From Candidatus Woesearchaeota archaeon (GTDB lineage Archaea > Nanobdellota > Nanobdellia > Pacearchaeales > GW2011-AR1), in contig CAYGVK010000001.1 in NCBI GenBank assembly GCA_964353375.1, positions 315 to 30,149 on the forward strand: a stretch of DNA of 29,835 nucleotides. Reading direction: 5' to 3'. Positions 11,492-15,635 of the stretch are shown piece by piece; position 1 is the stretch's first letter; each line of letters begins with the position of its first letter. Made by a program: the position numbers and the translations under genes. The notes below the pieces were generated by a model. That model made no database searches. It was not told the origin of the DNA and saw only the letters and a list, made by a program, of their open reading frames with translations.

Positions 11492-11992
11492 ATGCTCTTC
11501 AAAACACTTTTTCAAAAAATAGAATCATCAAAAGCATTTGAAAGATTCAAGCAGGATTATGAAAATGCAGAGCTTGTCATAGGTTATTTTGTTCTAGATT
11601 TTATAGGAATTGGCAACCAATTTCAATTAGATTACAAGACAGATAATAAAATATTTAGTTTTTCAATTGACATAAATAATCAAATTTCAATGAAACAAGA
11701 AGAGCTCATTCAAACAGAGACTAAACAAGAATTAAAATCAATCTCCCCTAATATTAATATTGATTTAAATAAACTTCAAGAAATTATAAAAAACAAACTA
11801 AGAGAAGAAAAAATAACTCAAGAACTTCAAAAAATAATAGCTATTTTGCAAATTTATAATAATGAACAAGCATGGAATACAACTTGCATTTTTGAAGGAT
11901 TAATAATAATTAATATAGTAATAAATTCTCAAACAGGAAAAATTATTAAATTTGAAAAAAAGAACTTAACAGATTTCATAAGGAAAGTTTAA
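11492..11992 (+). CDS. Hypothetical protein (C-terminal WNxT...IxINSxTGKII resembles PepSY-like strands)
   Basis: 166-aa ORF with an upstream TATA-like sequence. The fold suggestion is weak. Confidence 0.7.
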   Translation: MLFKTLFQKIESSKAFERFKQDYENAELVIGYFVLDFIGIGNQFQLDYKTDNKIFSFSIDINNQISMKQEELIQTETKQELKSISPNINIDLNKLQEIIKNKLREEKITQELQKIIAILQIYNNEQAWNTTCIFEGLIIINIVINSQTGKIIKFEKKNLTDFIRKV

Positions 11993-12600
11993 ACAATTAT
12001 AACATCCCAATCAATAATTCCTAGATTCCATCCATTCAAAAATCTTTCTTTTGATATTTTTCTATTTGGTTCAGCAGTTACAGGACCAGAATCATGAGCA
12101 TAAATATATTTTTTACCAATTCCTGTTAAAATAAGGTAATGCCCTTTCTTTCTATCCTCTTTTCCATCCATTTTCTCAATATTAATTAAACATATGGGGA
12201 TTTGTCCGGCCCTCAATAGATTTTGTAACTCTTGTAAAGACTGTCTATTCATACGAACAGTATATGCATTTCTATTTCTAATATCAAGAAAAGAAGATTG
12301 TATTGCATCGAAATCAAATGAATCTATTAATTCATTAGGATATACTTTTTTACTAAATCTTTCTAACTCTTCCCAAGAAAGCCTTTCAAAAACAGCTCGA
12401 ACTGGATAATAAAAATCAATTCCTAAAGTATCAAATGCGCTAGCTATCTGAACCAAAGTAATTGGGGTTCCTGGATTAACTCGCATTAATTCATCAATTT
12501 CATCAAGAGATTTTTCAATGCCCTTAAAGCTTAATACAGAACGTATTGATGTTTGAGCACACCGTCTACCCTCATTTAGATAAAAAGGGATCTGTAGCAT
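11989..12600 (-). CDS. C39-like cysteine peptidase (stand-alone, no transporter fusion)
   Basis: IPFY...RRCAQTSIRSVLSFKG (catalytic Cys), GHYLILTG (His) and YAHDS (Asp); starts 2 nt after the precursor stop. Confidence 0.8.
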   Translation of the reverse strand: MLQIPFYLNEGRRCAQTSIRSVLSFKGIEKSLDEIDELMRVNPGTPITLVQIASAFDTLGIDFYYPVRAVFERLSWEELERFSKKVYPNELIDSFDFDAIQSSFLDIRNRNAYTVRMNRQSLQELQNLLRAGQIPICLINIEKMDGKEDRKKGHYLILTGIGKKYIYAHDSGPVTAEPNRKISKERFLNGWNLGIIDWDVIIV

Positions 12601-12602
12601 TT

Positions 12603-12875
12603 TTAATGGCGTCTAGCATATGAATCATCATAGCAAGGGGGATCTTTAGTATCTTGATAACTATATGTTATTTCATCTCTATGGTTGCTCCCAGATCCAG
12701 AGTCGACATGTATTTCTGTGTGTCCATCAGAATATGGACTATCTCCATAATTAAATAAAAAAAAGTTTTGCCTATTTCTTATTGCCCTTTTTAAATGCGG
12801 ATTTTCTATATTCGCAAGCCTAATTTTATGTCCTAAAATTTCTATTTCTTCTTGTTCAAAATTGTGTTCTGTCAT
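12603..12875 (-). CDS. Putative RiPP precursor peptide with a leader and seven [Y/H]-x-[D/E] motifs
   Basis: 90 aa; the core contains YGD, YSD, HTE, HVD, HRD, YQD and YDD. The start overlaps the rSAM stop (ATGA). Confidence 0.75.
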   Translation of the reverse strand: MTEHNFEQEEIEILGHKIRLANIENPHLKRAIRNRQNFFLFNYGDSPYSDGHTEIHVDSGSGSNHRDEITYSYQDTKDPPCYDDSYARRH

Positions 12876-13988
12876 TTTGCTTCTGCTTCTGCTAATTCAC
12901 TATGCAAAAACTCCTCCACATGTTTAAATATTTTCTTATAAGCTACACAATATCCATCTTTTTTCATAACATCTCCAACCATTTCAAATGCATTATGCAT
13001 ACACCCACCATTACAAATTTTTCCGAAATCACAAGAACTACACCCTTGTATTGTTTCTAATCCTCTGTCTTTTAATCTACATTGAATCTCTGAATTTAAT
13101 GCATTTGCTAATCCTCCAACCCCATTCACATTTCCCATCTTAAATTCCGGAATTCCATCAAATCTACCACAAGGATAAATATCTCCTTGAGGACCAATAG
13201 AAACAAAACTGTTCCTACATGAAACAGAATAATTGCAACCAAATGGAATTCCAGTCATAAGATTCCCCATTATATCAGCAAAAGGATCTATATCTATTGA
13301 ATCATAATCATTAATCCATAAATCAAACAATTCGCACATCCCTTTACCATACTCTATAGGGGTTAATCCAAAACCATTTAAAACAGAAACTGTACATGGT
13401 ACAATAGGATTTACTTTTATATTTATCCTTTCCCTTTTAAAAAATTCATAAATCTCTCTAATTTGACCTATATTTCCTCTATTGAGAACAACTATTACTC
13501 CTCCACCTACATTTATTTTTCCATCCCTATCTGTTCTTCTTTTCTTTACAAGTTTTATACCTCTCATCACATCTTCAAATACGCCTCTCCCATCAGCATA
13601 TTTCCTCGTTTTATCATTTACCTCATTAGGGCCATCTAAACTTAATCCTAATCGAAAATCGTTTTCCTCTTCTATAAAATCTAATAATGCTTCTGTAACT
13701 AAAGTGCCATTGCTTTGTATACTATTACTAACAAAATAATCTCTTCCTCTTAATTTTCTAGATATAGTTGCAACCTCTCGATAGAAATCTACTCCCATTA
13801 ATAAGGGCTTCCCCCCCATGCCAAATAAAATGAACCTTTTTATCTTCTGAATTTTGAGCAACTTGCTCCATAGTATTTCTCAAAGTTTCTCTAGTCATTC
13901 TCCCCCTCTCAGCACTAGAAGGCACATAGCAATATACACAAGAAAGATTACAGTCATGTGTTGGTTTTACAATAGCTGTCAATGACAT
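12872..13988 (-). pseudogene. Radical SAM/SPASM peptide maturase (anSME-like architecture) split by one 1-nt frameshift; a sequencing error cannot be excluded
   Basis: Frame 1 (13988..) gives CNLSCVYC (CxxxCxxC) and WHGGE. Frame 2 continues PLLMGVDFY, QSNGTL, LGLSLDGP and the SPASM motif CNYSVSC...GDIYPC...CSSCDFGKICNGGC...C. The joined product is about 371 aa. Confidence 0.9.
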
Positions 13989-14072: not shown

Positions 14073-15635
14073 ATGGATGACGTATCTTTATTAATATCTA
14101 TCATAAATCCTAAATATAGTTCGCAACCTAATACTATAAAAAAATTATTAAAAGAAAAAGGATTTTCAGAGACATATAGAATTGCTGAAGAAAAAAATAT
14201 CAAACCAAATCCTCCAGTAGAGCATAAATTAGTTTATGATTCAGCTGTTCAGACATTAGAACCAATTTATTTTTGGATATTAGATTTTATGAATGATATG
14301 TTTGGAGGAGATGTTGAAAAACTTATAGATAATTTCACAAGCTCTCCTGGAAGCGGGCATTTTTCAGAATTGCAGGGGAAAGCTTCTCAAATGCAACAAG
14401 AAGCTTCAAGGGTTTTAGGAACAGTAAATAATATTTTAAAGGGTATTATCAATCTGATTTATGATTTAAAAGAATGGCAGATAATTTTAAGTCACTATGA
14501 CCAGGCAAATTCAAAAGACAAACAAAAAGCAGAGGCAGGAATTCTAGCTTTAAAACAAAGGTGGTTAGATAAAGTAGATATTCAAAGAGGACAAGGAAGC
14601 ATACATGCAATGACAACAGGACAATTAAATTTTGTAACTTTAAGAGATGCTTTTATGGCTGTAAAATCATTAAATGATGTTGATAAATTAGATTTAAATG
14701 AAAGAGTTAAAAGAATATTAAAACCAAGATTTCAGGAATTTTTAGAATGGAAAAAAAGAAGCGAACAGGAATTAAAAAAAAGATATGAAATTGAAAAAAG
14801 TTATTTAAAAAGTCAGGTAGAGGCTTTAAAATTAAACACAAAATGGGCAAAACCATATTTAAAAGCAGCTGCAAAATTAACTATGAATGAAAAATTAGAA
14901 AAAAATCCTGAATTTATCAATATATTTAACACAGTTCTTTTAGAATTAAGTATTATGGGAAAAAGAGCAGTTAATGTTGAACAAGAAGCAGTAAATAATC
15001 CAAGAGGCCTGCCTGAAAACTTTAAAAATATAGCAAAAAAATTAAGAAAATATTATGCAATTGTTTTAGTTGATTTTAATTTTAGAGGGATTCCAAGCAA
15101 AGTAGGACAGCATTATGCATTTGGAGGAAGAGCAGATGTAAGTTTTAAAGCATATGCATTAAATGAAGACGAACTTAAATTGCTTCATAAAAAATTAGAC
15201 AGTTCTGACATAGATGATTCTTTAAAATTAATTCAGGGAATGACAGATGAATCATTAGCACAGATAAAAGCAGATTTAGATGAATTTTTAGAAGATAAAC
15301 ATAAAGAACATAAAGAAGAAATTAAATCAGATGATACAAATCCATTTTCAGCATTGTTTAGCTTTTTAATAAAACCAAAAAAAGAAAAACCAAAATCAGC
15401 AGATGCTGAAAAACAAAAATTAGAGGAATTAGAAAAAAAAGGAATTAGAAAAGACAAATACGCAGAGCAATATGTAAGAAGCATAGCAGAATCAAATGCA
15501 GTAAATAATTGTTATAATGTCTTTGATATTTACAAAAAAGCACATGGTATGGCTTCATTGCCTTATATGCAGGAAAAAGAACCTACTCCGCCTGAAACTC
15601 AAGCAGAAAGATTATTCAGAATCCATAAGTTCTAA
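14073..15635 (+). CDS. Hypothetical protein, 520 aa, helical/coiled-coil-rich
   Basis: Long ORF with host-like codon usage; no catalytic motif recognised. Confidence 0.85.
   Translation: MDDVSLLISIINPKYSSQPNTIKKLLKEKGFSETYRIAEEKNIKPNPPVEHKLVYDSAVQTLEPIYFWILDFMNDMFGGDVEKLIDNFTSSPGSGHFSELQGKASQMQQEASRVLGTVNNILKGIINLIYDLKEWQIILSHYDQANSKDKQKAEAGILALKQRWLDKVDIQRGQGSIHAMTTGQLNFVTLRDAFMAVKSLNDVDKLDLNERVKRILKPRFQEFLEWKKRSEQELKKRYEIEKSYLKSQVEALKLNTKWAKPYLKAAAKLTMNEKLEKNPEFINIFNTVLLELSIMGKRAVNVEQEAVNNPRGLPENFKNIAKKLRKYYAIVLVDFNFRGIPSKVGQHYAFGGRADVSFKAYALNEDELKLLHKKLDSSDIDDSLKLIQGMTDESLAQIKADLDEFLEDKHKEHKEEIKSDDTNPFSALFSFLIKPKKEKPKSADAEKQKLEELEKKGIRKDKYAEQYVRSIAESNAVNNCYNVFDIYKKAHGMASLPYMQEKEPTPPETQAERLFRIHKF

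Follow-up and report, generated by a model that had tools for sequence, protein, structure and literature searches.

The locus described here raises the question of what a small open reading frame (ORF) rich in histidine, tyrosine and acidic residues encodes beside a radical SAM (rSAM) gene, whether the two form a precursor-maturase pair, and which chemistry such a pair would perform. The window, by which we mean the whole 29,835-nucleotide stretch of DNA that was analysed, comes from a Candidatus Woesearchaeota contig. The host is a DPANN-type archaeon with a genome of ~0.6 Mb (79% complete, 28% GC), and the ThrRS encoded in the window carries an archaeal editing domain.

A minus-strand ORF with seven regularly spaced triplets

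The precursor gene (P0001) occupies 12603..12875 on the minus strand and encodes 90 amino acids. Its ATG overlaps the stop codon of the rSAM gene (ATGA) and its own stop codon, TAA, lies at 12603-12605; the plus strand of 12603-12875 is full of stops, leaving the minus-strand frame as the sole ORF. The first-pass annotation had placed a precursor with a leader and seven [Y/H]-x-[D/E] motifs at these coordinates, which proved right, the strand being minus. Residues 1-42 (12750..12875, minus strand) constitute the leader, for which alignments give the signature EILGHKI..L..I.NPHL[KR]RAI..R...F[LI]F, and residues 43-90 (12606..12749, minus strand) constitute the core. Every triplet that had been named was found in the translated ORF, all on the minus strand: Y43GD (12741-49), Y48SD (12726-34), H52TE (12714-22), H56VD (12702-10), H65RD (12675-83), Y73QD (12651-59) and Y82DD (12624-32). 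We also reproduced the count of 7 acidic +2 residues for the 10 Tyr/His residues after position 42; Y71, Y86 and H90, the last residue of the protein, fall outside the pattern. When residues 42-90 were shuffled 200,000 times, 2.0 motifs arose on average and P(>=7) was 1.25e-4, while shuffling of the whole protein gave P = 1.2e-3 for the seven triplets. When offsets from -4 to +4 were scanned in the ORF, +2 was the sole peak (7, with 0-3 at the other offsets). Because shuffled sequences rarely reach seven motifs and +2 is the only peak, the pattern is positional and does not follow from composition alone.

A profile uncovers an uncurated precursor family

A search with the precursor as a single sequence matched only itself, so that a profile was needed to see the family; the single sequence likewise found nothing among 60 relatives. 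For seven rSAM homologs (45-59% identity), the rSAM gene is in every case followed immediately on its contig by a small ORF (7/7), which overlaps or abuts the rSAM stop in six of the seven. These ORFs have in common the leader EILGHK[IV].L..I.NPH[LI]RRA..R...F[LI]F.Y[GS]D, followed by a variable tail. A five-sequence profile identified 172 cluster representatives at E<=1e-3, and 37 at E<=1e-10, among 1.84 billion proteins. The window ORF matches the family profile at E = 6.4e-24 and contains all leader residues that are invariant among its five closest members. Across an alignment of 47 members, N25, P26, F39 and F41 are at least 90% conserved. A Pfam and NCBIfam scan of these 47 members returned no model common to them, and an Atlas search with the precursor gave no match. 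The resemblance of the IENPHLKRAI segment to leaders of known triceptide precursors, which had been suggested at first pass, is therefore one that no model backs.

Core statistics come from 131 members, those in which the leader provided an anchor. In these members, 72% of all core His/Tyr residues are followed by Asp/Glu at +2, against a background of 24%; the proportion is 77% for His, 71% for Tyr, 42% for Trp and 15% for Phe, and the aromatic-x-Asp/Glu pattern is thus conserved in the homologous peptides, as the first reading of this DNA supposed. The 131 cores contain 1116 motifs, compared with 369±14 after shuffling (maximum 413 in 1000 shuffles), a +2 bias about 52 standard deviations above the shuffles and far stronger than that in the single ORF. 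The number of motifs per core has a median of 8 and a maximum of 17, the commonest triplets being HTD, YSD, HSD, YSE, YGD, HTE, HSE and YDD. The conserved triplet positions are X1 and X3; X2 is free, with Thr or Ser favoured after His (49% of His motifs) and G, D, N, K and R also occurring. His is as frequent as Tyr at the first position, and Glu stands in place of Asp in about one third of the motifs. The cores consist of 15.5% D, 11.8% Y, 10.5% S, 10.1% H and 8.6% E, with 1.1% Cys.

In most pairs of tandem paralogs the leader is better conserved than the core (for example, 88% vs 41%), and the cores diverge yet keep their motif density. Judged from these alignments, the combination of a conserved leader and a diversifying core is the classic pattern of a RiPP precursor. 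At one locus (L034:2601-4070, genome G117), at least four tandem precursors follow one rSAM gene, each with 12-15 His/Tyr-x-Asp/Glu motifs; their leaders are alike and their cores diversified, and the last copy reaches the end of the fetched locus.

The precursor is coupled to an rSAM/SPASM gene

In the window, three minus-strand genes lie head to tail: the rSAM/SPASM gene (13988..12872), the 90-aa precursor and a 203-aa peptidase-like gene, after which a convergent gene ends the operon. Encoding contigs, searches for related loci and searches of whole genomes together supplied 17 distinct loci; the related-loci searches, run with a five-row alignment, returned only three and four. Precursors, from one to at least four in tandem, directly follow the orthologous rSAM gene in 15 of the 17 loci, which bears out the first-pass expectation that the ORF would be conserved next to the rSAM, and the coupling persists at rSAM identities as low as 34%. 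Two loci depart from this rule. In genome G342 an orphan precursor (L026:5332-5619) has no rSAM gene on either side, over 2.5 kb upstream, where the contig ends, and 5.3 kb downstream; in genome G231 no precursor was detected in the 1.5 kb that follow the rSAM gene.

These results bear on the alternative that the ORF encodes an unmodified metal-binding or disordered protein rich in His, Asp and Tyr and that its adjacency to the rSAM gene is incidental. The core composition given above would suit such a protein, but the adjacency recurs in those 15 loci across deep divergence, with overlapping start and stop codons; tandem copies have a common leader, and the strict i/i+2 register is destroyed by shuffling. 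We consider this explanation very improbable. The 90-aa ORF is very probably the substrate peptide of the adjacent rSAM enzyme, and the assignment as a RiPP precursor with a leader and a multi-motif core, first made from the letters of the DNA, is well supported by family conservation and rSAM coupling. The window ORF is also a typical member of a real family, which probably forms an uncurated, mostly archaeal branch of the known bacterial triceptide peptides.

A patchy cassette in mostly archaeal hosts

Of 400 high-quality genomes from the phylum, 8 encode an rSAM ortholog, and seven of these orthologs are immediately followed by a family precursor. Within the window's own family, no cassette was found in other genomes, either in 36 searched with the single precursor or in 27 searched with both the rSAM and the precursor profile. 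The cassette is thus an accessory element of patchy distribution. Its nearest operon relatives are on contigs titled Woesearchaeota, Pacearchaeota, Nanoarchaeota or "archaeon". The operon (11989-13988) has a GC content of 32.6%, compared with 28.1% for the window; of the 10 other long window genes measured, nine fall at 26.5-28.7% and one at 32.3%. This composition is weakly consistent with horizontal acquisition of a patchy cassette. Separately, a contig of high GC content, labelled Kiritimatiellae bacterium, has an rSAM ortholog with an uncalled family precursor behind it (L017:3001-4393, precursor at 4100-4393); this means either that the family extends into bacteria or that the contig was binned wrongly.

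The cluster encodes no exporter, and its distribution invites the proposal that the modified protein is a cell-associated effector, antiviral or acting at the host interface, analogous to HXS rather than a diffusible natural product. HXS provides the precedent of a defence role for His-x-X repeat proteins matured by rSAM enzymes (PMC13128918), and the occurrence in ~2% of the phylum's genomes and the length of some cores, which can exceed 100 aa, would agree with it. Against it, the maturase scores 82-103 bits with the HxsB model, for which the cutoff is 370, no HxsC, HxsD, signal peptide or peptidoglycan-binding domain was found, and PADLOC detected nothing specific. Such an effector role is improbable on this evidence.

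Two further window genes deserve mention. A minus-strand gene at 8432-9157 encodes a SleB-like cell-wall hydrolase (PF07486, E = 7e-22), here in an archaeal genome; hydrolases of this kind act on bacterial peptidoglycan. A 520-aa gene at 14073-15635 on the plus strand, divergent from the operon, was considered as a fourth component and rejected, given that it is near-universal and single-copy (387/400 genomes, vs 8/400 for the rSAM). It adjoins the operon in the five closest loci, on varying sides. Its product is soluble and helix-rich, with a mediocre AF2 model (pLDDT 63); Pfam gave nothing, the Atlas gave no usable match, and AFDB fold matches were confined to uncharacterised proteins, among them one that bears the name of a zinc-ribbon fragment. 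The product of 14073-15635 is an unannotated core DPANN protein outside the RiPP cluster.

The maturase belongs to no curated rSAM/SPASM family

The maturase gene is split by a frameshift into two minus-strand pieces. The N-terminal piece (13809..13988, residues 1-60) contains C13-x3-C17-x2-C20 and the WHGGE motif, and the C-terminal piece (12872..13807, residues 62-372) contains eight invariant auxiliary-cluster cysteines and an invariant C274-G-R276-F-D-G motif. Read through the break, the protein has 372 aa and matches Pfam Radical_SAM and SPASM, with no N-terminal RRE domain. In 111 homologs, C13, C17 and C20 and the auxiliary cysteines C252, C258, C274, C317, C320, C326, C330 and C348 are 100% conserved. 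The auxiliary cysteines map one to one onto anSME Cys255/261/276/330 and Cys317/320/326/348 (PMC5715301), and the conserved cysteines indicate three anSME-type Fe-S clusters; the catalytic apparatus is intact in orthologs. Of the features of triceptide systems, we found a co-encoded Omega1-X2-X3 precursor and an rSAM/SPASM maturase with the CX3CX2C motif and auxiliary clusters, frameshifted in the window, but no membership in a curated cyclophane-synthase family.

The best curated match is DynA (NF041298), with 283 bits for the read-through sequence and 280-281 bits for intact orthologs against a cutoff of 450, the alignment running end to end (positions 1-354 of 356). Second is anSME (TIGR03942), with 225-240 bits and a cutoff of 349, followed by TIGR04083 (184 bits), DarW (151), CbpB (150), the cyclophane synthase YhhB (142), the ranthipeptide maturase PapB (137) and DarE (135). 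Scores and cutoffs for cyclophane synthases are 79/450 bits for XyeB, 124/310 for GrrM/OscB, 107/370 for FxsB, 142/445 for YhhB and 117/425 for AmcB. Since no cutoff is reached, and intact orthologs behave alike, the maturase falls outside every curated family. In the PDB its relatives are anSME (closest, E = 3e-37), CteB and the triceptide synthase ChlB, and an Atlas search with the rSAM returned only generic rSAM/SPASM neighbours.

The invariant C274-G-R276-F-D-G aligns with anSME C276-D277-F and sets Arg276 beside the residue aligned to Asp277. Goldman et al. in 2013 are said to have proposed D277 as the catalytic base of anSME, beside the target residue of the substrate. An invariant Arg276 at this site would suit a carboxylate-bearing substrate. 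The idea mirrors enzymes of the HtkB/HaaB/YhhB type, in which a charged active-site residue sets X3 specificity; in HtkB, Asp214 (D214) selects Lys at X3 (PMC11499958).

A single surplus base interrupts the maturase in this genome

The frameshift is caused by one surplus base at 13808 (minus strand), beside a G7 run at 13811-13817, where the minus strand reads ...TGG CAT GGG GGG GAA G CCC TTA TTA ATG.... It splits the invariant WHGGE|PLLMG, whose consensus derives from the 111 intact homologs, and the two pieces of the rSAM were found as separate matches. Neither piece can work alone, since the CX3CX2C cluster resides on the N-terminal piece. With one base breaking the maturase frame, the locus is either freshly inactivated or mis-assembled. 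A recently dead relic, in which the frameshift is real and the precursor, if made, stays unmodified and without current function, would fit the position of the break, the absence of a second rSAM copy from the 79%-complete genome and the fact that every other rSAM found in the family loci is intact. Yet the window rSAM has no mismatch at any position with >=90% conservation and no other defect, and the precursor and peptidase genes are intact, in keeping with an error of sequencing or assembly, or with an event that is very recent. A single public run was found; it contributes a contig of 155 nt from the stretch, at depth 2, which lies away from the frameshift. We regard true recent inactivation as a serious prospect, though the lesser one, the remaining weight going to assembly error.

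A C39-like cysteine peptidase is the probable leader peptidase

The third gene of the operon (11989..12600, minus strand) starts 2 nt after the precursor stop and encodes a C39-like (papain-fold, clan CA) cysteine peptidase of 203 aa. Its Pfam scores exceed the gathering cutoffs by small margins (PF11814, 27.6/25; PF13529, 26.3/24; PF03412, 22.8/22). C14 and H154 are invariant in five orthologs, which also share H169 and D197. Five of the first 12 distinct loci (~40%) carry the peptidase gene. The end of the leader shows no conserved GG, GA or GS (double-glycine) site, the boundary reading F[LI]F.Y[GS]D. We consider the gene product a probable leader peptidase; leader removal by this C39-like enzyme would be plausible.

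Proposed product and mechanism

We propose that the three genes form a RiPP operon whose maturase staples [His/Tyr]-x-[Asp/Glu] triplets into small rings, a model that draws on analogy with characterised enzymes and that we favour with moderate confidence. The conserved ~42-aa leader would serve as a handle that the maturase recognises directly, as suggested by the enzyme having no RRE domain. A 5'-deoxyadenosyl radical would then take a hydrogen from the +2 acidic side chain (Asp Cbeta; Glu Cbeta or Cgamma), the resulting carbon radical would attack the His or Tyr ring that lies two residues upstream, and an electron would pass to the auxiliary clusters. Each triplet would yield one small ring with a loss of 2 Da, up to seven in this precursor, after which the peptidase would cut off the leader. 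By the precedent of YxdB, HaaB, HtkB and YhhB, the most likely product would be a multi-ring, triceptide-like peptide. The earlier suggestion of up to seven aromatic-to-Asp/Glu crosslinks thus gains from the YxdB precedent (PMC11002830) as chemistry, whereas the crosslinks may not be made in this particular genome because its maturase gene is frameshifted. A ringed product rich in His, Asp and Tyr could plausibly chelate metals.

The same precursor-maturase pair might instead perform another chemistry, namely C-N (His nitrogen to Cbeta) or C-O (Tyr oxygen) bond formation, anSME-like oxidation of Ser/Thr at X2, or epimerisation. DynA, the best curated family, installs a His-N to Tyr-Cbeta link in addition to a C-C link (PMC10288494; PMC11002830), and DynA and DarE relatives make C-N and C-O links. 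Oxidation at X2 is conceivable because anSME is the second-best family, as well as the best PDB match, and about half of the His motifs have Ser or Thr at X2. However, X1 and X3 are the conserved positions and X2 varies; the family has Gly-Arg where anSME has Asp277; and, according to the triceptide literature, the characterised three-residue cyclophane enzymes all make C(sp2)-C(sp3) links (PMC11499958). Taken together, these alternatives are unlikely, and ring formation between X1 and X3 by C-C linkage remains our preferred model. Thioether chemistry is also unlikely, since Cys makes up so little of the core residues. In cyclophane rSAM chemistry, the aminomalonate side product comes from Ser and not from Asp (PMC12186529).

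More speculatively, and with rather low confidence, the family may make a new ring type (His-N to Asp-Cbeta, or a link to Glu-Cgamma), with 7-19 rings per peptide, giving a rigid poly-carboxylate/imidazole scaffold for metal capture or for the host/virus interface in DPANN archaea rather than an antibiotic. If so, Archaea would thereby have their first characterised rSAM cyclophane RiPP. A survey of archaeal RiPPs reports that few archaeal products have been characterised, only two lanthipeptides having been validated earlier, and counts DPANN rSAM-type clusters only via automated predictions (PMC12144867); our literature search found no paper linking cyclophane rSAMs to DPANN archaea. The family couples a defined enzyme to a defined substrate, counts more than 170 diverse natural substrates and has a very simple, dense recognition motif; enzymes able to staple His/Tyr to acidic residues many times per peptide might be drawn from it. 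It also raises the question of why symbionts with 0.6-1 Mb genomes keep such a cassette.

Comparison with known systems

Triceptides are defined by aromatic-to-Cbeta crosslinks on Omega1-X2-X3 motifs, made by rSAM/SPASM enzymes (PMC11499958). We considered whether an acidic X3 is unprecedented and rejected this notion, as YxdB and OscB already take Asp (PMC11002830). The closest analogue by motif is YxdA/YxdB, an rSAM/SPASM system acting on Tyr-x-Asp, in which YxdB links Tyr-C3 to Asp-Cbeta (Sugiyama et al. 2022, summarised in PMC11002830). It corresponds to the Y-x-D half of the present motif, represented here by YGD, YSD, YQD and YDD. Compared by description only, the present family differs from YxdA/YxdB in that His is as frequent as Tyr, Glu occupies about one third of the motifs and the median is eight motifs; in addition, the hosts are mostly DPANN-labelled archaea and the leader lies outside curated models.

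The His half of the motif finds its counterpart in the rSAM/SPASM enzymes HaaB (HAA), HtkB (HTK) and YhhB (HNR), which link a position-1 His via C2 to the +2 Cbeta and have no separate RRE protein. HaaB joins His-C2 to Ala-Cbeta (PMC11002830), HtkB joins His-C2 to the Cbeta of the +2 residue (PMC11499958), and YhhB joins Tyr-C3 or His-C2 to Arg-Cbeta (PMC11002830). X3 in these systems is Ala, Lys or Arg, whereas it is acidic here, and the YhhB score is 142 bits against the required 445. OscB/GrrM and FxsB resemble the present system in that one enzyme acts on many tandem Omega-x-X motifs, and Asp at X3 is also accepted by OscB, which joins Trp-C7 to the Cbeta of Asn or Asp (PMC11002830); in those systems, however, the aromatic residue is Trp or Phe, and the scores of 124 and 107 bits fall below 310 and 370.

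DynA has the same size, aligns end to end, has no RRE and links an aromatic residue to the Cbeta of a nearby residue; the dynobactin enzyme joins Trp to Asn by a C-C bond and His-N to Tyr-Cbeta (PMC11002830). Its substrate, unlike the multi-repeat acidic cores described here, has a single dynobactin decapeptide core with two rings; DynA comes from Gram-negative bacteria, and 283 bits is below the 450 required. The anSME enzymes (PDB 4K36-4K39) provide the closest solved structure, and their eight auxiliary-cluster cysteines correspond one to one, but the score is 225 vs 349 bits and Asp277 aligns to the invariant Gly-Arg. No sulfatase-type substrate was found by Pfam and NCBIfam in the ten ORFs around the operon.

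The HXS antiphage system (HxsA-D; PMC13128918) is similar in that rSAM enzymes mature a His-x-X repeat protein, and its His-x-Ser repeat protein, once matured by rSAM enzymes, can serve as an antiphage effector (PMC13128918), a reminder that a product need not be a secreted antibiotic. It relies on HxsD in addition to two rSAMs, and its effector is exported and carries a peptidoglycan-binding domain, whereas the operon here has a single rSAM and lacks the rest. The kind of system found in the window, including the use of Y-x-D motifs, is known; what is new is the family, which has its own leader, an rSAM clade outside curated models, equal use of His and Tyr, Glu in addition to Asp, many motifs per peptide and mostly archaeal hosts.
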